NCBI GenBank assembly: GCA_942493235.1
Contig: OW818676.1
Coordinates: 4,151,820 to 4,215,819, forward strand
Length of the DNA: 64,000 nucleotides
Direction: 5' to 3'
Source: an uncultured bacterium
GTDB lineage: Bacteria; Bacteroidota; Ignavibacteria; Kapaibacteriales; UBA2268
Under the pieces are notes generated by a model, which searched no databases, had not been told where the DNA came from, and worked only from the letters and a program-made list of their open reading frames with translations. Both the position numbers and the translations under genes were made by a program. Below, one piece after another: positions 1,861 through 18,627 of this stretch (positions within the stretch are counted from its first letter, which is position 1; every line of letters starts with the position of its first letter).

Positions 1861-2206
1861 AACTCTCCCTTATAGCTAATAATAAAACTAATTACCATAT
1901 AAAACGTTTTAAAATAATGATAGTTACAAAGTGAACATATAGCAAACAGTGATAGTTCGTTTCATAAACAATTGATTTATGTTTTATTAAATATCCAATT
2001 ATTGGCAATGCCTATGTCCCAGCTCTGAAGAGCCTGTGTAAATATTATTCTGCGGCAAAATTCTTACGATTTCTATATGCAAAAGAAGTCCCTTGAAAAG
2101 CTAATTACGATAAATCACAATATTTTCCATCAATTAATAATATTTACTATTGAAATTTTAAATTTAATTCTTATATTTGATAGATTGATAAAAGGGACAA
2201 ACTCGT

Positions 2207-5200
2207 ATGAGAATTTTATTAGTAGAAGACAACAAGATTTTAGCAAGTGTAACGCGTGAATATTTAAAATCTGCGGGATATGAAGTATTTTTAGCTGCGG
2301 ACTCTGTTGCATGCTTAAAACTTCTCAATGATGATGAATTTGACCTTATAGTTTTAGAAGTTGTCTTGCCGGACAGATCCGGAATAGATTTATGTAAAGA
2401 AATCAAATCTAAAGATAGTTTTCAAGACATACCTATTATATTTTTATCCTCTCTTACTAATAAAGATGCCTTAGTCGATGGATTAAATGCCGGGGGCAAA
2501 GACTTCATTACAAAGCCATTTAATAAAGAAGAGTTGCTGGCGAGAGTAAAAGTCAACATAGACCTAAAGTTGTCTAATGATTTAATAAAGAAGCAGAATG
2601 AATTGCTACGCAGGGAAATAGAATCAAGAAAGCAGGCAGAGCAAAGCCTAAAAATTTCCGAATCTGTATATCAGGCAGTTGTTGAAGACCAAATAGAAAT
2701 GATATGCAGAATTAAACCTGATGGAACTATAATATTTGTTAATAACGCATTCTGTAATTATTTCGAGTTCTCCAAGCAGGATATAATTAATAATAACCTA
2801 TTTGATATTTTGGTCGATGACGACAGAAAAATCAGATATAAAAATGTATTGCAATTGGGAAATTCAGAGACTCTTAATCATGAGGATTATTTCTATGATA
2901 AAGAAGGCAATATAAAATGGTACAACTGGAATTTAAGAGCTATACGTGATACTTCGGGTATGCTAAAAGAAATCCAAGGCGTAGGTGCCGATATTACCGA
3001 AAAGAAAAAAATCATCGAAGAGCTTAACGAGCTTAGCCTTTTCAATTATAGTATAATAGATAATGCGGGAGAAGGTATAGCGGTACTTGATAGAAATTTC
3101 AAATTTCAAACTTGGAATAAAGCCATGGAAATCATGAGCGAATTCCGTGCTGATGAAGTAATTGGAATTGACTGCCGAATCCTATTCCCTAATATAATAG
3201 AAAAATTCGGCAAAGATATTGATATTGCTTTTACCGGACAACAGGTTAAAACTACGGTTTATCAATTAACATTAACAAAATCTCAAGATAACTTGTGGGT
3301 TAGCGGAAATTTTGTACCGCATATAAATAAATATGGAGATATAATCGGCTTAATCGCGGTGTTTAGCAATCATACCGAAAAAGTTATTAAAGAAAATCAG
3401 CTTAAAGAAAGTCAAATCAGATTGGCAACTTTGATTGACTCTCTACCTTTTGATTTTTGGGCATTAGATAATGATTGGAATTATATATTACAAAACAAAT
3501 CCTGCATTGATAATTGGAAAGACGTAAAAGGTAGGAATTTTCACGAACTTGATGATTACGATGGATTAAAAGATATTTGGTATGCTAATAATCTAAAAGC
3601 TTTCTCCGGTATATCTGTTGAAGAGCATTATACTTTAAATAACGCAGGTAATGATTTACACAAGAAATCAGTTATTTCTCCGGTGATAATAGATGAAGAA
3701 ATTAAAGGTATTATCGGAACAGAAATCGATATAACCGAGATAATTAATTATCAAAATGCCCTTAAAGAATCCGAAAGTAAATATAGGCTTCTTTTTGATA
3801 ATATGCTAGATGCTTTTACTATTAATGAAATTATTTATAACAGCGAAGGTAAACCAATCGATTATATGGTTACCGAGTATAATAAATCATATCTGAAGCT
3901 GTCCGGATTTAGCGAGGAGCAAGTAAAATCGCTCAGCTCAAGTGAAAGGTCTAAAGAGCATTTTCATGAATTTTTTGATAAAATAGAATTTTCGTACCAT
4001 TCAGGGAAATCACAGAAATTTGAGTTTTACTCTGAATTGTACTGCAAGTATTTATCATTAAGTATTTATTTTCACTCTGATAATAAATTTGCTCTAATAT
4101 TTGATGATATTAGTGAAAGAAAAATCGCCGAAGTTAAGCTTAAAGAAAGCGAAGAACAGTTCAGGCAGCTGACTGAAAATATTGATGAAGTAATTTGGTT
4201 AAGAAATAAAGAATCAATACTCTATATCAGCAGCTCCTCGAAAAAATTATTTAATATAGACAGTAATGAACTAATTAGCAATACGAACCTATTTTATGAC
4301 TGCATTCATCATGAATACCTTGAGTTAGTAAAAAGTAAACTTTACGGTAAGGAATATTTAGAAGAAGGCAAGTTGAATATTGAATTCAAAGTTGTTATTG
4401 ATAACAAAGAAAAATGGTTCTGGTGCCGCTCATTCCCTATATTCGATGAAAATTCAAATTTAATTAAAATAGCCGGTATAGTAGAAGATATTACAGATAT
4501 TAAAGCAAGTGAAGAAATAATCAGAAAAGCTAATCTGGTAATAGAAAAAAGTAACACTGTAATAATTATTTGGGAAGACTTGCTGAATCTTAAACCGCAG
4601 TATATCTCGGAAAGTATTCGTCATTACGGTTATAATGCCAAAGACTTTATTGAAGGCACTTTAGATTTCGAATCAATTATTTATAAAGAAGATATTGAGA
4701 AAGTCAGAAATACAATTACGGAAAACCGACTTAATAGCAAAACGCATTATTCGATAGACTGTAGGCACCTTACTTTTAATAAAGAAATCAAATGGATGGA
4801 AATCAGAATCACTGATAAACAAACTTCCGGTACTACTTATTATAGCGAATCAATTTCAATTGACATCAGTGATAGAAAGAAAGCCGAAGAGAAGCTCTAT
4901 GACTCTGAAAACCGTTGGCAATTTGCTGTCGAAAGTTCCGGAGACGGGCTCTGGGAATGGGATGTCCACTCGGGTGAGTTCCTTATTAGTAATAATCTTC
5001 ATAGTATTATGGAGATGAATATTTATGAAAATATTTTTTCAATAAATGAATGGGAAACAAAAATTCATCCCGATGATTTAAGTGAATTTGCGACAAGTAT
5101 CGAGTATCATTTCAAAGGAGATTACCCACAAATCTACCTTGAGCACCGACTTAAATGTTCGACCGGCGTTTATAAATGGGTTCTGGACAGGGCAAAGATT

Positions 5201-8200
5201 TTAACTAAAGATTTAAATGGCGACCCGTTGAAAGTAATCGGCACTATTACTGATATTTCAAAAAGAAAAAACATAGAGATTAATCTTTTTGATACTTCGG
5301 AACGCTTAAAATTGGCAAAAAATGCCGCAAATATGGGTATTTTTGACTTAGATTGTAAAAATAATATTTTAATTTGGGATGAAGAGCTTTTTGAGATTTT
5401 CGGTGTTAAATCGTCGGATTATAAAAATGCAAGAGAAGCATTTGATACGTTAATCTATTCCGATGATGTTAAAATGATAGATGAAGCTACATCGTTACCT
5501 AATTTAACATCAAATAAAATCGAATTGGAATTTGGATATAGAAAAGGAAATAATCAGCACTGCATAATGAAGTCCATTTCTGACGTAATTTTTGATGAAT
5601 TTGGTGAACCATCGAGAATTATCGGTGTTAATTATGATATTACCGAATCTAAGAAAAGTGAAAAAGAAATTGTAGAGGTTCGTTCGCTTTTAGAAGCAAC
5701 TTTTGAACAGAATCCTGCTCCTATGGTTTTGGTTGAATATCCGAGCATGTTTGTAAGAATAGCAAATTCCGCATTTATTGATTTTTATAACATCGATAAA
5801 GAGATTATTCCTAATAAAATGTCAATCATAGAGCTTAGATCTTATTGGCAGGAATTTTTGCCAAACGGAGTAATGCTCTCTCCGTATCAGACTCCACTTA
5901 CCCAATCCCTTAAAGGAAATCGGATAAAAAATGAAGAATACTATATTAAATGTAAAGACGGATCTGTAAAATGGGAATTGGTCAATTCTGCCCCTATTTT
6001 CAATTCAGCAGGTGAGCTGATAGCAGCATTTGCGGTAGTTAATGATATTACTAATATTAAATCTGCTCAAGAAAAAATCAAACAAAGTGAAGATAAATTC
6101 AGGTTTATTACTGAAAATTTGATTGATGTAATTTGGCAAACCGATATAGATTTAAATTACACATATTTAAGTCCTTCTATTTCTAATTATTCAAATCAAT
6201 CTCCGAGCGATATGATTGGCAAAAGCATTTTAGAAAATATTTTACCCAAATATCATCAATTAATTATAGAAAAGCATAAAGAAAGTATTGTTAATATTGA
6301 AAATAAGAAACAGCCGGAATCAGATACCATTGAATGCGAAAGCTATTTACCAGATGAGACTTCAATCTGGAGTGAAATCACATATACCGCGTTAATTGAT
6401 TCCAACTTTGAGCTTATCGGATACCAAGGTATTACTCGCGATATAACAAAAAGGAAACTTACCGAATTAGCTGTGATTGAATCCGAAAAAAGATTTAGAA
6501 CCTTAATTACTTCGTCACCCGACTCTATTTTTATAACCGATTTGTCTGGACTAATTAAGTTTAGTTCCTTGGCAGGCTCAAATTTATTCGGTTATGACAC
6601 TAAGAGTTTTGCCGAGAAATCAATTACTAATTTACTTGATAAAACGGATGTTAATCATTTCAACTATTCAATTAATAAACTGATTGAAGGCAAATATCCT
6701 CAACCCGAGACATTTGTAGCACACAAGGCAGACGGCTCGAAAATATTTATTGAAATCAATTTTAGTTTATTGAAAAATTCAGCAGAGCTACCGGAAGAAA
6801 TTATATTCATTATCAGAGATATTACCGAGCGAAAAAAAATCGAGTTCCAATTGACAGAAGCTAAAAACAAAGCTGAAGAAGCCAACAGAACCAAATCTGA
6901 GTTTATTGCAAATATCAGCCATGAAATTCGCACACCACTTAATGCAATTATCGGATATGCCGATATTTTAAAAGCTAATATTGTCGAATATGAGCAAAAA
7001 GAATATATAAAAGGAATAGTAAGAGGCAGTAAAAACCTATTGGCAATTATTAATGATATTCTTGACCTTTCAAAAATTGATTCCGGGCATATTGAAATTA
7101 ATTATTCTCCCGTAAATATTAATTATATTATTAATGACATTAGGCAGATGTTTTCTCTGAAAAGTAAAGAGAAAAACCTCGAATTCATTTTTGAGACTAA
7201 TCCTGAATTACCTAAAATAATTCTTACCGATGAAGTTCGATTGAGGCAGATATTGATTAATTTAGTCGGCAATGCATTTAAATTTACTAATAAAGGATTT
7301 GTCAAGCTACAGGTCGATTTTGTCGCTTTTGAAGGCAGAATAGATTTGGTCTTTCATATTATTGACTCGGGAATTGGCATTCCACCAAGCCAGCAAAAAA
7401 TTATTTTTGAACCTTTTAGGCAGCAGCAGGGTCAGAGTACACGTAAATTCGCCGGCACTGGCTTAGGGCTAACTATCTCGGACAAATTAGCAAAATCTAT
7501 GAATGGGAATATTTTATTAGTAAGTTCTCAAGGCAAAGGAGCAAAATTTACTCTTGAACTTAAAAATGTAAAAATTCCTGAAAATTACGAATACAATAGA
7601 ATTACAGAATCTAATATTGATATATTCGATAATAAAAGGATAGTACTAATTTCATCAGATATTATTTTAAGCACTATCATTTCGGATTATTTTTATACTA
7701 CTAACTGTGCATTCGAGATTTTCACAGATTCTGAAAAAGCTAAGCTTGAAGCTAACAGAAATTTAGCTGATGCTATTATTATTGATTTTGATAATTTAAG
7801 CCAAATAGAAATAGATAATTTAGCTCACTTAGCTAAGACAGGTTTTTTAAAAGAGCAATGCCTATTGGCTATTAGTAAAGATAACAAGATTCCTGTCAAT
7901 TCGGATATTAATTTTAATGAAGTTTTTATCAAACCGGTCGATATTGGTTTGTTGTCTGATTCGTTAACTAATTATTTGAAATTTATCAATATAAATGTCG
8001 AATCGATGGATGACAAAATCGAGCAATTAATCGATTTAATTATTCTAAAAACAGATTTTAAAAAATTGGGACAGCTCTCTCCAAATATTTCATCGGAGTG
8101 GAGGAAAATCAAAAAACTAATGGATATTGATGAAATAAATCGATTTGCTGAAAGTCTTATACTGACATCAGAAAGCATGGCTAACACATATTTAAAAATA

Positions 8201-8320
8201 TATGCTGAAGTATTAAGGCATCAAGTTTCTGAATTCCAATTAGATACAATGAATAATACATTTAATTCGTTCTATAAGATAGTAGATTATATAAGTAATT
8301 CAGGATTTCACAATGAATAA
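2207..8320 (+). CDS. Giant hybrid sensor histidine kinase: N-terminal receiver, many PAS/PAC domains, HisKA, HATPase_c, C-terminal pseudo-receiver/unknown region
   Basis: N-terminus MRILLVEDN...DLIVLEVVLPDRSG is a receiver; repeated PAS-like blocks across ~1500 aa; H-box SEFIANISHEIRTPLNAIIGYADIL; G-boxes GTGLGLTIS; 2037 codons open. Confidence 0.85.
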   Translation: MRILLVEDNKILASVTREYLKSAGYEVFLAADSVACLKLLNDDEFDLIVLEVVLPDRSGIDLCKEIKSKDSFQDIPIIFLSSLTNKDALVDGLNAGGKDFITKPFNKEELLARVKVNIDLKLSNDLIKKQNELLRREIESRKQAEQSLKISESVYQAVVEDQIEMICRIKPDGTIIFVNNAFCNYFEFSKQDIINNNLFDILVDDDRKIRYKNVLQLGNSETLNHEDYFYDKEGNIKWYNWNLRAIRDTSGMLKEIQGVGADITEKKKIIEELNELSLFNYSIIDNAGEGIAVLDRNFKFQTWNKAMEIMSEFRADEVIGIDCRILFPNIIEKFGKDIDIAFTGQQVKTTVYQLTLTKSQDNLWVSGNFVPHINKYGDIIGLIAVFSNHTEKVIKENQLKESQIRLATLIDSLPFDFWALDNDWNYILQNKSCIDNWKDVKGRNFHELDDYDGLKDIWYANNLKAFSGISVEEHYTLNNAGNDLHKKSVISPVIIDEEIKGIIGTEIDITEIINYQNALKESESKYRLLFDNMLDAFTINEIIYNSEGKPIDYMVTEYNKSYLKLSGFSEEQVKSLSSSERSKEHFHEFFDKIEFSYHSGKSQKFEFYSELYCKYLSLSIYFHSDNKFALIFDDISERKIAEVKLKESEEQFRQLTENIDEVIWLRNKESILYISSSSKKLFNIDSNELISNTNLFYDCIHHEYLELVKSKLYGKEYLEEGKLNIEFKVVIDNKEKWFWCRSFPIFDENSNLIKIAGIVEDITDIKASEEIIRKANLVIEKSNTVIIIWEDLLNLKPQYISESIRHYGYNAKDFIEGTLDFESIIYKEDIEKVRNTITENRLNSKTHYSIDCRHLTFNKEIKWMEIRITDKQTSGTTYYSESISIDISDRKKAEEKLYDSENRWQFAVESSGDGLWEWDVHSGEFLISNNLHSIMEMNIYENIFSINEWETKIHPDDLSEFATSIEYHFKGDYPQIYLEHRLKCSTGVYKWVLDRAKILTKDLNGDPLKVIGTITDISKRKNIEINLFDTSERLKLAKNAANMGIFDLDCKNNILIWDEELFEIFGVKSSDYKNAREAFDTLIYSDDVKMIDEATSLPNLTSNKIELEFGYRKGNNQHCIMKSISDVIFDEFGEPSRIIGVNYDITESKKSEKEIVEVRSLLEATFEQNPAPMVLVEYPSMFVRIANSAFIDFYNIDKEIIPNKMSIIELRSYWQEFLPNGVMLSPYQTPLTQSLKGNRIKNEEYYIKCKDGSVKWELVNSAPIFNSAGELIAAFAVVNDITNIKSAQEKIKQSEDKFRFITENLIDVIWQTDIDLNYTYLSPSISNYSNQSPSDMIGKSILENILPKYHQLIIEKHKESIVNIENKKQPESDTIECESYLPDETSIWSEITYTALIDSNFELIGYQGITRDITKRKLTELAVIESEKRFRTLITSSPDSIFITDLSGLIKFSSLAGSNLFGYDTKSFAEKSITNLLDKTDVNHFNYSINKLIEGKYPQPETFVAHKADGSKIFIEINFSLLKNSAELPEEIIFIIRDITERKKIEFQLTEAKNKAEEANRTKSEFIANISHEIRTPLNAIIGYADILKANIVEYEQKEYIKGIVRGSKNLLAIINDILDLSKIDSGHIEINYSPVNINYIINDIRQMFSLKSKEKNLEFIFETNPELPKIILTDEVRLRQILINLVGNAFKFTNKGFVKLQVDFVAFEGRIDLVFHIIDSGIGIPPSQQKIIFEPFRQQQGQSTRKFAGTGLGLTISDKLAKSMNGNILLVSSQGKGAKFTLELKNVKIPENYEYNRITESNIDIFDNKRIVLISSDIILSTIISDYFYTTNCAFEIFTDSEKAKLEANRNLADAIIIDFDNLSQIEIDNLAHLAKTGFLKEQCLLAISKDNKIPVNSDINFNEVFIKPVDIGLLSDSLTNYLKFININVESMDDKIEQLIDLIILKTDFKKLGQLSPNISSEWRKIKKLMDIDEINRFAESLILTSESMANTYLKIYAEVLRHQVSEFQLDTMNNTFNSFYKIVDYISNSGFHNE

Positions 8321-9437
8321 AATAAGTTTTGAAGGATTAGAAAACTCAAAATTGTTGATTGTTGATGATATTATAGATAACATTCGAATAATCGCAAGTT
8401 TACTTAAATCAAAAGGCATTCTGGTAACTCCGGCTACAAGTGGGGAGCAGGCTTTAGGCCTGTCTGTTGCTAAAAAACCCGATCTAATCCTATTAGATGT
8501 GCAAATGCCCGAAATGGACGGTTTTGAAGTTTGTAAGAAGCTAAAGGAAAATCCATTAACTAAAAATATCCCTGTTATATTTTTAACAGCAAGAACAGAA
8601 ACCGAAGATATCATGAAGGGATTTAATCTCGGAGCTATTGATTACATAACTAAACCAATCAATTCCGATGAAGTAATGGCAAGAATTAAAACTCATCTTG
8701 AGTTAAAAAAATCAAAAGATATAATCAACGAGCAAAATATTAATTTAAGTGAGCTTAATGCAACTAAAGATAAATTCTTTTCTATAATTGCTCATGATTT
8801 GAAAAATCCTATTTCAAATTTCAGAGATTTAACTAAAGTCTTAGTCGAAAACTTCGGTTCCTTGTCAGATTCTGATAAGGTGGAATACTTGACTATGATG
8901 AATAAATCATCAGAAAGGCTGTTTTCTCTTTTAGAAAATTTGCTTGAATGGTCTCGTTCTCAGAGAGGCTTGATTCAGTTCAGCCCCATTCAGTTAGATC
9001 TTAACTATATTATTGATAATATTATTTCGTTGATGACTCCTCTGGCTCAAAAAAAGGAGATAAGCTTAGTTAAAAATATTAACAGCAATATTAATATTGT
9101 TGCAGATGTTAATATGCTCAATACTGTAATTCGTAATATAGTTTCAAATTCAATTAAATTTACAGAGACTAATGGCAATATTACTGTAGGAGCTAAAAAT
9201 TTCGATAATTATATAGAAGTATTTATAGAGGATAGCGGAATAGGCATCAGTCCCGAAAATATCAGCAAATTGTTTCATATTGATTCTAATATTTCTACTT
9301 TAGGTACTTCAAACGAAAAAGGTACAGGCATAGGGCTAATTCTCTGTAAAGAATTTATCGAAAAGCATAACGGAAAAATCTGGGTAGAAAGTGAAGTGGG
9401 AAAAGGAACTAAATTTACTTTTGTTATTCCTAAATAA
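8313..9437 (+). CDS. Receiver-histidine kinase hybrid (REC-HisKA-HATPase)
   Basis: KLLIVDDI...DLILLDVQMPEMDGFEV receiver; H-box FFSIIAHDLKNPISNF; G2 box GTGIGLILCKEF; start overlaps upstream gene by 8 nt (ATGAATAA). Confidence 0.85.
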   Translation: MNKISFEGLENSKLLIVDDIIDNIRIIASLLKSKGILVTPATSGEQALGLSVAKKPDLILLDVQMPEMDGFEVCKKLKENPLTKNIPVIFLTARTETEDIMKGFNLGAIDYITKPINSDEVMARIKTHLELKKSKDIINEQNINLSELNATKDKFFSIIAHDLKNPISNFRDLTKVLVENFGSLSDSDKVEYLTMMNKSSERLFSLLENLLEWSRSQRGLIQFSPIQLDLNYIIDNIISLMTPLAQKKEISLVKNINSNINIVADVNMLNTVIRNIVSNSIKFTETNGNITVGAKNFDNYIEVFIEDSGIGISPENISKLFHIDSNISTLGTSNEKGTGIGLILCKEFIEKHNGKIWVESEVGKGTKFTFVIPK

Positions 9438-9676
9438 ATTCCAAATAACAATATAGAGGTAATTATATAATTTTAAAAATAGTCATTTTGTGGTGCCTTT
9501 ACAGTTTCGTGTAATTGTAAAGGTGATGATATATTTTTAATATAGAGCTTTTGCAACTTACCTTGATTTTAAATACTTTCTTGATTTCAAAACATTTCTT
9601 GACTTTATAATAAATATTTTGTATTTTGTTGTGATTTTTTAAATACGATATATTCTTCTTGTAAAGGTAGGAAATT

Positions 9677-12600
9677 ATGATAAATAAAAAACAACATAAA
9701 TTGGCTTTCGGTACAAAGTTGTCTTTAATTATTTTGTTATTGGTTTTACTAATAAGTTTGCCGATATTATTTTTTGTTTACAATTATATTGACATTAAAA
9801 TAAAAGATAAGACTCAAAATATATTAGTTGATAATTCCAAACAAATTGCAGAAAAAATCAACAGTCAGTTAAATGAAATTCTCTATCAAATCAATCCTAT
9901 TGCCGAATCATTAGAAAATTTAATAAGTACTAATGATATTAATAAGGTAAAGGATAAAATCAATAATACTCTCGATCAGAATAAACATATTTCAGGTATA
10001 TGGATAATGCTTAATCCGGAAGAATTCGTAAGCAATGAAAATATTTCCGACTTCTTATACGCAAGCGTACTCGGAAATATCACTAAAGTATTTGTAAATA
10101 ATTCAAATAATAAGCACATTTTTAAACCACTGAATAATATAAAAGAAAATCAATTTTTAGATATATTCAAAGAATTGAAATATTCGAGACGAAACACAAT
10201 TTCTGCCCCTTCTATAATTTCAGATTATGGAACTCTATATAGCACAATTCAATTATCAATTCCGGTAACAGTCTCCGGTCGATTTATAGGAGTGGTAGGT
10301 ATCCATCTAAGCTCTCAATTCATCGGTAATATACTGAAATACTCCTTTTTAAACGATGATGCAATATCAGCAATTTTCTCAAATAGCGGAGATGTTATTT
10401 TCATAAATAACGACCATTATAATAAAGAAGCAAATATCAATAATTTTAATATTTATAAATCCGAAACTATGCTTGAGATTGAAAAAGCAATTAAAAGCAC
10501 ATATTCGTATTCTATTAATCAGCATTCTGCAATGACTAATTCTAAAGCATTTACTACGGTAATCCCAATACATCTAAAAAAATATAATACTAATTGGGCT
10601 TTAGTCAATGTCTATCCGGACAAATCTTTTTTCACGGATTTAAATAATTTTACTAATTTTTATATATTAATAGTAATTTTAGGGTTACTATTAATGATTG
10701 CATTAATCCATGCTTATTTAAAATTCCAATTAAAGCCATTGAGAAATTATTTAAAATTCTCTAATAATATTTCAAATGGATTTTATCTTCAAGAAATCAA
10801 TGAAAAATATCTTTCTAAATCCGATGAAATCGGTAATCTATTCCAGTCGTTAAAAACTATCCAGGAGAGCTTGAGAAATAAAGACACAGTAGCAATGAAG
10901 AAATACGAAGAGCAAAATAAATATATTACCGGTACTAAATTATTGCTCGAGCAAATGCGTGGCAATCAGGACATTCAAGTATTAGCTAAAAATGTACTGT
11001 CATTTCTTGCAAAATTTATTGATGCTCAAGTAGGCACATTTTATTTATATAACGACGAAACTAAAGTGCTTGAACTTTCGGCATCATTTTCTTTTACTAA
11101 GAGAAAAGGCGACCATTACAAAATCAATTTAGGCGAAGGAGTATTAGGTCAGGCAGCTATTGAAAAACAAATTGTTTTTTTAACCGAAATACCACCGGAT
11201 TATATTAGCATAAGCTCTGCTCTTGGCGATGCAGTACCGCAGAATATAATAATAGCTCCTTTTGTTTATGAAGATAAGCTAATCGGGGTAATAGAATTAG
11301 CAACGTATCTACAATTTGATGATGCTCAAATCGAGTTTATTAAAAACGGACTAGAAAATATTGCTATTGCATTTAATTCTGCCGGAGTCAATAAAAAAGT
11401 CAATTTGCTCTATCAAGAAGCTCAAAATCAAGCTGAAAAACTACAGACTCAGCAAGAAGAGCTTATTGCTACTAATGAAGAACTTGAAGCTCAGACAGTA
11501 GCTTTAAGAAATTCAGAGCATAAACTAATCGAACAACAGGAAGAATTACAAGCTATCAATGAAGAGCTTGAAGAGAAAACAAGTTTTCTTGAAAAGCAAA
11601 AAGGAGAAATAATTCAAAAGAATGAAGAATTACTCGTTGCTCAATATGAAATTGCTCAAAAAGCTAAAGAAATCGAATTGACAAGCCAGTATAAATCCGA
11701 ATTCCTTGCAAATATGTCGCATGAATTAAGAACCCCGCTAAATAGCATATTGATTCTTGCTACTAATTTATTTGAGAATTCAGCAGGAAACTTAGTAGAT
11801 GACCAAGTAGAATCTTCGAAAATCATATACCAGTGTGGAATTGATTTGCTTAATCTGATAAATGATATTTTAGATTTGTCAAAAATTGAAGCTGGCAAGA
11901 TGACTATGAATTTCCAAGCTACCGAAATAATACATATTGCCGACAGTATTAATAAAAACTTCAAAAAATTAGTTGAAAATAAAGGCTTAAAGCTGATTGT
12001 AGATATAGCTGCCGATTTGCCAAAAGAAATAAACACTGACTCCCAACGGCTTGAGCAGGTAATTAAGAATTTTGTTTCAAATGCAGTTAAATTTACTTCT
12101 AAGGGAGAAATCAGTGTATTAATCAGGCATCCCGATGAGTCTGTTAAACTACGTATTCCTGTAAATAATCACAAGCAAGCATTAGAAATTTGCATTAAAG
12201 ATACCGGCATAGGTATTCCCAAAAATAAACAAAGAGAAATTTTTGAAGCTTTCCACCAGTTAGAAAGTCACTTATCAAGGAATTATAATGGTACAGGGCT
12301 TGGCCTGTCTATAGCAAAAGAAATTACTCACTTGCTTAATGGCGTAATTAATCTCAAAAGCATAGAAGGAGAAGGCTCCGAATTCTCGATTATAATTCCA
12401 ATTAATACGCCTATTGCCGAATCTGATACTAATAATCTCGGAATCAATGAATCAAGCAGAATTATTCTGGAAGCTAACAATGAACTATCGACAGAATCTG
12501 TTTTACACAATCTTTCAGATATGCATGTAGAAGATTATAAACAAGAAATTAGCGAATTGTTTACTGCTGAAATAAATATGGCTAATATCGAAGATGACAG

Positions 12601-13792
12601 AAATTCTTTAAAAGAAGGCGATAAGTTAATTTTAGTAGTTGAAGACGATTTGATTTTTGCTAAAATTCTTTATGAACAGGTAACCCACAAATCTTTCAAA
12701 TGTATATATACTGCCACCGGAGAAGAAGCTTTGGCTTTAGCTGATAAGTTTAAGCCCGATGCTATTATATTAGATATTAAACTACCGGGTATTAACGGCT
12801 GGGAAGTTTTGCAATTTCTAAAGGAAAATCCCAACACTCGCCATATACCTGTTCACATGATGAGTGGCGAAGGCAATACAATTGATGCCAAGCGTAACGG
12901 TGCAGTCGGATTTATTAGTAAACCTACCACAAAGGATAAATTAGATAAAGCCCTGACTAATTTAGAAAATCTAATGAAAAAGAAAATCAAAGATTTACTC
13001 GTTGTAGAAGATGACAGCAAACTCCGGAAAAGTATTATCGGGCTATTGAAAGCAGACGACGTTACTACATACGAAGCTGATTCTGGAGCTCAAGCTCTGC
13101 AGTTTTTAAAATATTATAATATTGATTGCATGGTGCTGGACTTAACACTACCGGACATGACCGGCTTTGACTTACTAAACATAATACAAAGAGAATCAGA
13201 TATTAATATTCCTCCCATAATTGTTTACACCGGTAAAGATTTATCTAAAGAAGAAGAAACAAAGATACTGAAATTTGCAGAATCAATTATTATCAAAGGT
13301 GTTAAGTCAGAGGAAAGGCTAATTGATGAAACTGCATTATTTTTACATAGAGTAGTTGATAAAATTCAAGTACATTCAAAAGATATAATACTAAATCTTC
13401 ACGATAAAGATTCTGTTTTTAAAGATAAAAATGTACTTTTAGTCGATGACGATATTAGAAATGCTTTTGCAGTCTCAAAAGTATTAAAAGAAAAAGGAAT
13501 AAATATTACAGTTGCCGAAAATGGCGAGAAAGCAATTGAAGCATTAAAATCCGATACTTCTTTTAATATGGTACTGATGGACATAATGATGCCGATAATG
13601 GATGGATACACTGCAATTACAAAAATTCGTACCGAATTGAATATGAAAAAATTGCCAATAATTGCTCTTACTGCTAAAGCAATGAAAGAAGATAGAGATA
13701 AGTGTATCAATGCCGGTGCAAACGACTATTTATCCAAACCTATAGATTTAAATAAACTGTATTCTTTGTTAAGGGTCTGGTTATATAAATAA
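9677..13792 (+). CDS. Membrane hybrid sensor kinase: TM, periplasmic sensor domain, TM, HAMP, GAF, coiled coil, HisKA, HATPase, three tandem receiver domains
   Basis: Two hydrophobic segments flank a ~300 aa domain; H-box SEFLANMSHELRTPLNSI; GTGLGLSIAKE; three blocks with LxVEDD / VLLVDDD ... D-x-x-LP receiver signatures. Confidence 0.85.
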   Translation: MINKKQHKLAFGTKLSLIILLLVLLISLPILFFVYNYIDIKIKDKTQNILVDNSKQIAEKINSQLNEILYQINPIAESLENLISTNDINKVKDKINNTLDQNKHISGIWIMLNPEEFVSNENISDFLYASVLGNITKVFVNNSNNKHIFKPLNNIKENQFLDIFKELKYSRRNTISAPSIISDYGTLYSTIQLSIPVTVSGRFIGVVGIHLSSQFIGNILKYSFLNDDAISAIFSNSGDVIFINNDHYNKEANINNFNIYKSETMLEIEKAIKSTYSYSINQHSAMTNSKAFTTVIPIHLKKYNTNWALVNVYPDKSFFTDLNNFTNFYILIVILGLLLMIALIHAYLKFQLKPLRNYLKFSNNISNGFYLQEINEKYLSKSDEIGNLFQSLKTIQESLRNKDTVAMKKYEEQNKYITGTKLLLEQMRGNQDIQVLAKNVLSFLAKFIDAQVGTFYLYNDETKVLELSASFSFTKRKGDHYKINLGEGVLGQAAIEKQIVFLTEIPPDYISISSALGDAVPQNIIIAPFVYEDKLIGVIELATYLQFDDAQIEFIKNGLENIAIAFNSAGVNKKVNLLYQEAQNQAEKLQTQQEELIATNEELEAQTVALRNSEHKLIEQQEELQAINEELEEKTSFLEKQKGEIIQKNEELLVAQYEIAQKAKEIELTSQYKSEFLANMSHELRTPLNSILILATNLFENSAGNLVDDQVESSKIIYQCGIDLLNLINDILDLSKIEAGKMTMNFQATEIIHIADSINKNFKKLVENKGLKLIVDIAADLPKEINTDSQRLEQVIKNFVSNAVKFTSKGEISVLIRHPDESVKLRIPVNNHKQALEICIKDTGIGIPKNKQREIFEAFHQLESHLSRNYNGTGLGLSIAKEITHLLNGVINLKSIEGEGSEFSIIIPINTPIAESDTNNLGINESSRIILEANNELSTESVLHNLSDMHVEDYKQEISELFTAEINMANIEDDRNSLKEGDKLILVVEDDLIFAKILYEQVTHKSFKCIYTATGEEALALADKFKPDAIILDIKLPGINGWEVLQFLKENPNTRHIPVHMMSGEGNTIDAKRNGAVGFISKPTTKDKLDKALTNLENLMKKKIKDLLVVEDDSKLRKSIIGLLKADDVTTYEADSGAQALQFLKYYNIDCMVLDLTLPDMTGFDLLNIIQRESDINIPPIIVYTGKDLSKEEETKILKFAESIIIKGVKSEERLIDETALFLHRVVDKIQVHSKDIILNLHDKDSVFKDKNVLLVDDDIRNAFAVSKVLKEKGINITVAENGEKAIEALKSDTSFNMVLMDIMMPIMDGYTAITKIRTELNMKKLPIIALTAKAMKEDRDKCINAGANDYLSKPIDLNKLYSLLRVWLYK

Positions 13793-16900: not shown

Positions 16901-17608
16901 TTATATAAGATGCTCTTTTTCAAGCATAGTGAAGAACTGCTTTTTATATGTGTCGCTGATAGGTATAATTTTATCTTGAATCTTGACAGAGGATTTCTCT
17001 ATGGAATTTATTTTATCTAAGGGGACTAAAAATGATTTATGCACGCGGCAGAATTTATCTTTCGGTAACATTTCCTCAAGCTTTTTGAAATTCAGAAGCG
17101 ACATAATTCTTTCAGTATTGGTAACTATTCCCAAATAATCGCCCATTCCTTCTATATATAGGATGTCGGCAATATTAACTTTTTGCAGTCTGAATTCGGT
17201 TTTAACAAATATATAATCCTTTTTATTATCATTTTCGGATTTATTGTTAGAATGAAATTTTTCGACTACTCTATTTACAGCTTTTAGAAATCTTTCAAAG
17301 CTAATAGGTTTGAGCAAGTAATCCGAAATATCGAGGTCATAGCCGTCTATGGCAAAATTATCATAAGCAGTAGTAAAAATCACCTGTGGCTTATGGTTGA
17401 GAGTTTTCAGTAATTGAATGCCTGAAATATAATCCATTTGAATATCGAGGAATAGTAGGTCTATGCTGTTTTTCTGCAAATAGTCCAAGCAATTCAGAGG
17501 ATTATCAAAGCTTGCACTTAGGTTCAGAGTAGGTACTTTATTAATATAGTCTGAGATTAGCTCAAGAGCCAAAGGTTCATCATCAACAGCAATGCAATTG
17601 ATTTTCAT
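16901..17608 (-). CDS. LytTR-family two-component response regulator
   Basis: N-terminal receiver (IAVDDEPLALELI...LLFLDIQMDYISGIQLL) plus C-terminal LytTR-type DNA-binding region; 4-nt overlap with upstream kinase gene. Confidence 0.85.
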   Translation of the reverse strand: MKINCIAVDDEPLALELISDYINKVPTLNLSASFDNPLNCLDYLQKNSIDLLFLDIQMDYISGIQLLKTLNHKPQVIFTTAYDNFAIDGYDLDISDYLLKPISFERFLKAVNRVVEKFHSNNKSENDNKKDYIFVKTEFRLQKVNIADILYIEGMGDYLGIVTNTERIMSLLNFKKLEEMLPKDKFCRVHKSFLVPLDKINSIEKSSVKIQDKIIPISDTYKKQFFTMLEKEHLI

Positions 17609-18627
17609 CTGGTATCCAGTTCAAGTTTAACATTATATTTAGTTTTGTCACTTACGATAATTAGCTCATGCTTTTTCGGATAAATTAAATCCAGTCTTCT
17701 GATTACATTATGCAAGCCTATACCGTTACTTTGGTCAACAGAAACTATAGAATCGCTACCGATATAATTAGTACATTCGAATTTAATTATACTATCAGTT
17801 ACTTCAAATTTGATAATAATACCCGGTGAATCAACTTTCCTTGACCCATGTTTAAAGGCATTTTCAATAAAAGGAATAAATATCAGAGGGCTAACGTATA
17901 TATTATCGATATTACCATGAATTTGAAAATCAATAAAGTCCGCTTCTTTAATTCTTAATTTACTAAGCTCAATAAAACCGCTCAGATATTCAATTTCGTT
18001 AGATAATAGTACTTTATCGGCATTTGAGTCGGTCATCATATATCTCATTATCTCGGACAATTTCATAATAGCAGTCGGTGCTTGGTCAGATTTCTTTAAG
18101 CTAAGATTGTAAATATTATTTAATGTATTAAATAAAAAGTGCGGATTAATCTGACTACGTAGAAATGCGATTTCGCCGGATTGATTTTGATTAATAAGTT
18201 CGATTTTTAATTGCTGCTCGCGATACCAGTCCAAAGTATATTTAATAGTTACCGGTACCCAGCTAAAACCGAATGTATTGAGGAATTCGTTAACTATGAC
18301 GCTTAATCCTACATGCAGATGAGATAAATCAACTTTGAAGATATAGTATGCACCAATAGTAATTCCTATTCTGCCACCGGTGAATAAAATATTTATTAAA
18401 ATAAACGCTATGCTAGTCTTCCATATCCTATTTTTATTGAATGAACTAATCCCGAAATAAGCGTAGCATACATAGAAATTAATTATATTAAGTACTGAAT
18501 TTACAATCATATAGAGAATTGTAGAGCCGGGATATTCACGCTCTGGGAAAATAAATGGTAAAAATGGGACTATAGTATAGAAAACCCAGAAGACCACATG
18601 CACTATTATATAATATTTCTTTTTCAT
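17605..18627 (-). CDS. LytS-like membrane sensor histidine kinase (His_kinase PF06580-type)
   Basis: Multiple N-terminal TM helices; INPHFLFNTLNNI motif typical of LytS/YehU-type kinases; C-terminal ATPase region. Confidence 0.8.
   Translation of the reverse strand: MKKKYYIIVHVVFWVFYTIVPFLPFIFPEREYPGSTILYMIVNSVLNIINFYVCYAYFGISSFNKNRIWKTSIAFILINILFTGGRIGITIGAYYIFKVDLSHLHVGLSVIVNEFLNTFGFSWVPVTIKYTLDWYREQQLKIELINQNQSGEIAFLRSQINPHFLFNTLNNIYNLSLKKSDQAPTAIMKLSEIMRYMMTDSNADKVLLSNEIEYLSGFIELSKLRIKEADFIDFQIHGNIDNIYVSPLIFIPFIENAFKHGSRKVDSPGIIIKFEVTDSIIKFECTNYIGSDSIVSVDQSNGIGLHNVIRRLDLIYPKKHELIIVSDKTKYNVKLELDTR

Follow-up and report, generated by a model that had tools for sequence, protein, structure and literature searches.

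We find that three consecutive sensor-kinase genes in a 64-kb window (the whole stretch of DNA analysed) probably make up two separate signalling units, in which genes 1 and 2 would act as a cascade of two kinases comparable to LvrA/LvrB and gene 3 would work apart from them. As the initial annotation had stated, and as the ORF list bears out, the genes follow one another with the lengths given; all lie on the plus strand, gene 1 at 2207–8320 (2037 aa), gene 2 at 8313–9437 (374 aa) and gene 3 at 9677–13792 (1371 aa). The 8-nt overlap between the stop of gene 1 and the start of gene 2 (ATGAATAA) was likewise correctly described, as was the absence of a DNA-binding domain from the three genes (0/3 carry one).

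Gene boundaries and surroundings

A candidate Bacteroidota −7 promoter box, TATATTTG (2172–2179, plus strand), lies 35 nt 5′ of the start of gene 1 and is the only strict TAnnTTTG match found by a motif search of the intergenic regions; the same search found no strict box in the 239-nt gap between genes 2 and 3 (9438–9676). This gap contains a hairpin with a 12-bp stem followed by a U-rich tract (approximately 9494–9540, plus strand), a candidate and possibly partial terminator. The RNA fold of 9438–9560 has an energy of −26.6 kcal/mol (z = −2.99 versus shuffles), and the hairpin was not called by a simple terminator scan. Since the gap has no strict −7 box and its hairpin went uncalled, read-through into gene 3 is conceivable. 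Both general scans were uninformative, with 87 promoter-like sites for sigma-70 against 67.8 ± 9.6 in shuffles, and 5 terminator-like sites against 5.5. The sequence is AT-rich and of Bacteroidota type, and the site counts were near shuffle level.

Beyond groES/groEL, on the opposite strand, are genes for a LytTR regulator and a LytS-type kinase (16901–18627) that overlap by 4 nt and form their own cognate pair. The pair is present downstream as had been claimed, but its orientation is convergent, toward gene 3, rather than divergent. The only receivers in the whole window are those of genes 1–3 and of the LytTR regulator.

Genes 1 and 2 as a conserved gene pair

The product of gene 2 is a Rec-DHp-CA kinase, in which Pfam identifies Response_reg, HisKA and HATPase_c and nothing else, in agreement with the REC-HisKA-HATPase order originally assigned. 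Its receiver contains D18, D19, D62, T92 and K114, all of which are invariant in 23 homologs, and its kinase core contains His161 together with the N, G1 and G2 boxes (D62 and H161 are invariant in alignment A2); the homologs are about 50% identical across phyla. There is no hydrophobic window indicative of a transmembrane (TM) segment. Gene 2 has the features of a Rec-HK, namely an intact receiver joined directly to DHp-CA, with neither a TM segment nor a further sensor domain. Over its whole length it matches the Rec-HK half of the LvrA model of NCBIfam at 167.9 bits; because 168 bits compares with an NCBIfam cut-off of 1200 bits, we regard gene 2 as an architectural relative and not as an ortholog. 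LvrB was not among the PDB sequence matches at E ≤ 1e-20.

The overlap of 8 nt between genes 1 and 2 is also found in an 85%-identical relative (L001), and in another (L002) the two genes are separated by 2 nt. Moreover, in 17 loci the gene immediately 5′ of a full-length homolog of gene 2 encodes a sensor kinase, with gaps of −56 to +43 nt, in MAGs of Bacteroidota, Cyanobacteria-like, Chloroflexota and Proteobacteria lineages. The conserved overlap and these 17 loci uphold the proposed coupling of genes 1 and 2, which, judging from the sequences, very probably function together and are expressed together.

Gene 1 combines a large PAS array with defective receivers

The product of gene 1 is cytoplasmic (a scan revealed no hydrophobic segment) and comprises, in order, a receiver with Glu at position 51, eleven PAS-size modules, DHp/HisKA, CA/HATPase, a degenerate receiver and an HPt-like tail that lacks the histidine. 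The receiver, PAS array, HisKA and HATPase listed in the initial annotation are all recovered with Pfam, but that list omitted the approximately 250 aa after the ATPase that hold the degenerate receiver and the tail. The PAS-size modules (2654–6841, plus strand) are each about 126 aa long and end in a DIT/DIS-x-R/K-K motif. Nine of the eleven pass the Pfam PAS-clan gathering scores; the seven to ten PAS domains previously claimed are to be corrected to these counts. Module 3 (aa 393–517) does not pass in Pfam but scores 15.9 bits against the self-profile, above 400/400 shuffles, and is probably PAS-like; for module 4 (aa 515–643), which does not pass either, the self-profile score does not exceed those of shuffles. 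Recent tandem duplication of the modules is ruled out because they are strongly divergent from one another. That the array integrates many inputs is a reasonable suggestion from its sequence. The kinase core (HisKA and HATPase; 6893–7564, plus strand) was located with Pfam and an alignment of the three cores, and contains His1572 (6920–6922) as the candidate HisKA phospho-site, the N, G1 and G2 boxes lying in the HATPase; according to the alignment, 3/3 cores of genes 1–3 retain their H, N, G1 and G2 boxes.

The phospho-accepting sites, whose conservation had been left to be checked, keep their Asp/Asp/Thr-Ser/Lys residues in the receivers of genes 2 and 3, but the two in gene 1 are both pseudo-receivers, which in part bears out a finding that the initial annotation had named as refuting its model. 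The N-terminal one (2213–2551, plus strand; Pfam Response_reg, 91.6 bits) retains E7/D8, S81 and K103, and alignment with CheY places Glu51 (GAA, 2357–2359) at the position of the phospho-accepting Asp. The L002 protein, the sole ortholog with an N-terminus, has Asp at this position, so Glu51 might have arisen from an error in sequencing or from a change at strain level; a metagenome scan with aa 1–270 of gene 1 returned generic receiver matches only (≤45% identity). The C-terminal receiver (7634–7972, plus strand) has no Pfam match at E ≤ 1 and was recognized from its homologous position, where relatives have a canonical REC, and from AF2 and Foldseek. Ser1816-Ser1817 stand at the position of the Mg2+-binding acidic pair, the MPxMDG loop is lost and helix α4 is absent. 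Asp1860, Ser1890 and Lys1909 are kept, and for this reason residual phosphorylation is conceivable. The AF2 model (pLDDT 86.9) has the topology β1α1β2α2β3α3β4-loop-β5α5, and in Foldseek it matches DivK with a TM score of 0.84 as well as the pseudo-receivers of FrzS and KaiA.

The C-terminal tail of gene 1 belongs to a widespread family

The last part of gene 1 encodes a tail of about 110 aa (7979–8317, plus strand), a helical bundle with an HPt-like fold and no phospho-accepting histidine. Its marker residues are Trp1965, Phe1980-Ala1981 and Glu1982, the last of which occupies the inferred position of the HPt histidine, and the alignment of the tail family contains no conserved His column. The likeness to HPt is visible by fold comparison only, without sequence similarity: Pfam found no Hpt match in 37 members of the family, a PDB profile search with the tail found no sequence-level homology to HPt, and hhalign found no similarity between the tail and the HPt of ArcB (the ArcB sequence having been entered by hand). 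The 251-aa C-terminus of gene 1, used alone as a query, returned no homologs in a word-index search subject to an index limit. The tail is 77% identical to that of L001 and 37% identical to that of P0123. Its family comprises 5,526 representative clusters in which the Trp, the Phe-Ala and a Leu are near-invariant, and the histidine is missing even from members that adjoin a fully canonical receiver. No Pfam model covers these thousands of clusters.

Hybrid kinases that bear the tail are usually encoded next to their partner gene. Specificity of the tail for Rec-HK partners is ruled out, as an unbiased sample also contained REC-HD, REC-sigma54 activator and plain REC partners. In the literature that we searched, the term ‘pseudo-HPt’ is used for plants only. 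We tentatively raise the possibility, which we consider open to considerable doubt, that the tail represents an undescribed and widespread bacterial class of pseudo-HPt, a module for receiver docking or gating at the C-terminus of hybrid kinases that would form, with the internal receiver, an intramolecular switch over direct His-to-Asp transfer to a downstream receiver-first protein (Rec-HK, REC-HD or REC-sigma54 activator). Gene 1 would then be an extreme case, a pure docking scaffold whose internal receiver is also dead. Should the tail indeed serve for receiver docking, this would go some way toward explaining how a hybrid kinase that lacks an HPt selects its own receiver or an external one.

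Gene 3 is probably a separate hybrid kinase

Gene 3 is probably independent of genes 1 and 2 and encodes an envelope-spanning hybrid kinase of a PDC-like/GAF type, with the order TM segment, outside domain of about 290 aa, TM segment, HAMP-like motif, GAF, coiled coil, HisKA (His682), HATPase and three receivers (Asp1033, Asp1155 and Asp1302). The GAF domain and the three receivers named in the initial annotation were confirmed with Pfam and a receiver alignment. Its periplasmic sensor is borne out insofar as two TM segments flank the outside domain, but the PDC match is sub-threshold (18 bits). The HAMP domain did not hold up, there being no match to Pfam HAMP (PF00672) at E ≤ 1 in aa 336–432; a PLxxY...DEIGNLF motif after the second TM segment, seen by eye, suggests one. 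A gene resembling gene 3 adjoins gene 1/gene 2 homologs in 0/82 related loci, and the gene that follows in the two relatives nearest to this locus encodes a tRNA synthetase or adenylosuccinate lyase. Together with the hairpin in the gap, this speaks against the three-gene unit that had been claimed.

Alternative explanations

The model put forward at the outset, in which genes 1–3 make up a single operon and a single branched multistep phosphorelay whose receivers exchange phosphate, draws on the fact that the genes are consecutive on one strand with no gene between them, on a gap devoid of a strict promoter motif, and on the three intact receivers of gene 3 and the intact kinase cores of genes 2 and 3. 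We nevertheless consider it very unlikely. A canonical His-Asp-His-Asp relay is unsupported because it depends on the histidine of an HPt domain, which is lacking: Pfam Hpt matches nothing in genes 1–3 or in the subset of other window ORFs that was scanned, and the tail, the one HPt-like domain, is without a conserved His. The gene for an HPt protein could lie beyond the window, but no receiver beyond that of LytTR is available in the 64 kb, and this one is paired with its LytS-type kinase; no linked terminal regulator with an output domain is found. Among the hybrid kinases, gene 3 has three phosphorylatable receivers and gene 1 probably has none, given E51 and the Ser-Ser pair. Also counting against the three-gene relay are the stable hairpin with its U-rich tract and the observation that gene 3 is never beside homologs of genes 1 and 2, those of 85% and 70% identity included. 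Receivers encoded beside hybrid kinases can serve as phosphate sinks, and gene 2 might accordingly be mainly a sink or phosphatase, or a heteromeric tuner of gene 1, in place of a forward relay. The phosphatase-competent symmetric state proposed in the LvrB paper and the lack of a downstream regulator encoded nearby would fit this role. It is unlikely all the same, given that gene 2 keeps across phyla a kinase core, His161 and ATP-binding boxes that would be superfluous for a sink, and that LvrB phosphorylates a downstream partner, LvrC.

The C-terminal receiver and tail of gene 1 might also be functionless, decaying remnants of an REC-HPt module of the ArcB/TorS type. Indeed, aa 1551–2014 of gene 1 are collinear with TorS through its HPt region, and the acidic pair, helix α4 and the histidine have all been lost. 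Decay has very little probability, however, in view of the conservation of the tail from L001 to P0123, its large family with near-invariant residues, the lack of His even where the neighbouring receiver is fully canonical, and the confident folds predicted for both domains.

Proposed mechanism

Under the two-unit arrangement that we favour, and from the domain content, residues, folds and conserved gene order described above, we infer the following phosphotransfer steps. The nine to eleven PAS modules of the soluble gene 1 product would set the autophosphorylation of His1572, from which the phosphoryl group would pass, with no HPt step, to Asp62 on the gene 2 protein made by coupled translation. 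Once phosphorylated, the receiver of gene 2 would set the catalytic domains free, much as Rec phosphorylation activates the LvrB kinase (PMC13269768), and gene 2 would then autophosphorylate on His161 and pass the phosphoryl group to a response regulator whose gene lies in another part of the genome. The relay hardware of gene 1 appears disabled by Glu51, by loss of the acidic pair and α4, and by a tail without histidine; its dead modules may act as regulatory or docking surfaces that, for example, hold the partner receiver or gate the kinase, and not as phosphoryl carriers. Onward relay from gene 3 would need an HPt protein encoded outside the window.

If this is correct, the locus brings a case of Bacteroidota type to the Rec-HK cascade, a recently defined class, marked here in gene 1 by an unusually large PAS input array (9–11) and the disabling of all relay modules. 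For annotation, the lesson is that three hybrid kinases in a row do not equal one phosphorelay, and that conservation of gene order tells a true pair from a chance neighbour.

Comparison with known systems

The C-terminal half of gene 1 resembles the tripartite, ‘unorthodox’ kinases ArcB, BarA, TorS and EvgS in having DHp-CA, a receiver fold and an HPt fold in that order. Unlike these, gene 1 has a receiver without the acidic pair and an HPt-like domain without the His, so that both relay sites are degenerate, and it missed all of the NCBIfam equivalog cut-offs (TorS, 317 versus 676.5 bits; ArcB, 305 versus 838; BarA, 280 versus 890). AHP6 of Arabidopsis has an HPt fold without the phospho-accepting His, as does the gene 1 tail, and binds partners but carries no phosphate. 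AHP6 is free-standing, eukaryotic and clearly homologous to true AHPs, whereas the tail is fused to a kinase and has no detectable Hpt sequence similarity. The receivers of gene 1 are like Rec1 of ShkA (Caulobacter), FrzS, KaiA and plant PRRs, in which a receiver fold with a defective site serves as a regulatory or interaction module; for FrzS and KaiA the likeness is one of fold. Plant PRRs carry Glu at the phospho-Asp position, as gene 1 does at Glu51. The ligand of ShkA is c-di-GMP, whereas no ligand is indicated for the pseudo-receivers of gene 1.

The closest parallel to genes 1 and 2 is LvrA/LvrB of pathogenic Leptospira, where direct transfer from LvrA His218 to LvrB Asp56 and the operon arrangement have been published (PMC5863495, PMC13269768). 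In both systems an upstream cytoplasmic kinase with PAS domains shares an operon with a downstream Rec-DHp-CA kinase, and neither an HPt nor a DNA-binding domain is present. They differ in phylum, genes 1 and 2 being Bacteroidota-like and scoring far below the NCBIfam cut-off, and in output, which in Leptospira is the anti-sigma factor LvrC and has no counterpart assigned to genes 1 and 2. In LvrA the receiver is live and is joined to a second kinase, whereas gene 1 has an N-terminal Glu-receiver and 9–11 PAS modules, followed toward its C-terminus by a receiver that is dead and an HPt-like tail devoid of His. In LvrB, the prototype Rec-HK, a helical αS linker becomes a coiled coil on activation; the corresponding linker of gene 2 is about 25 aa long (aa 127–151).

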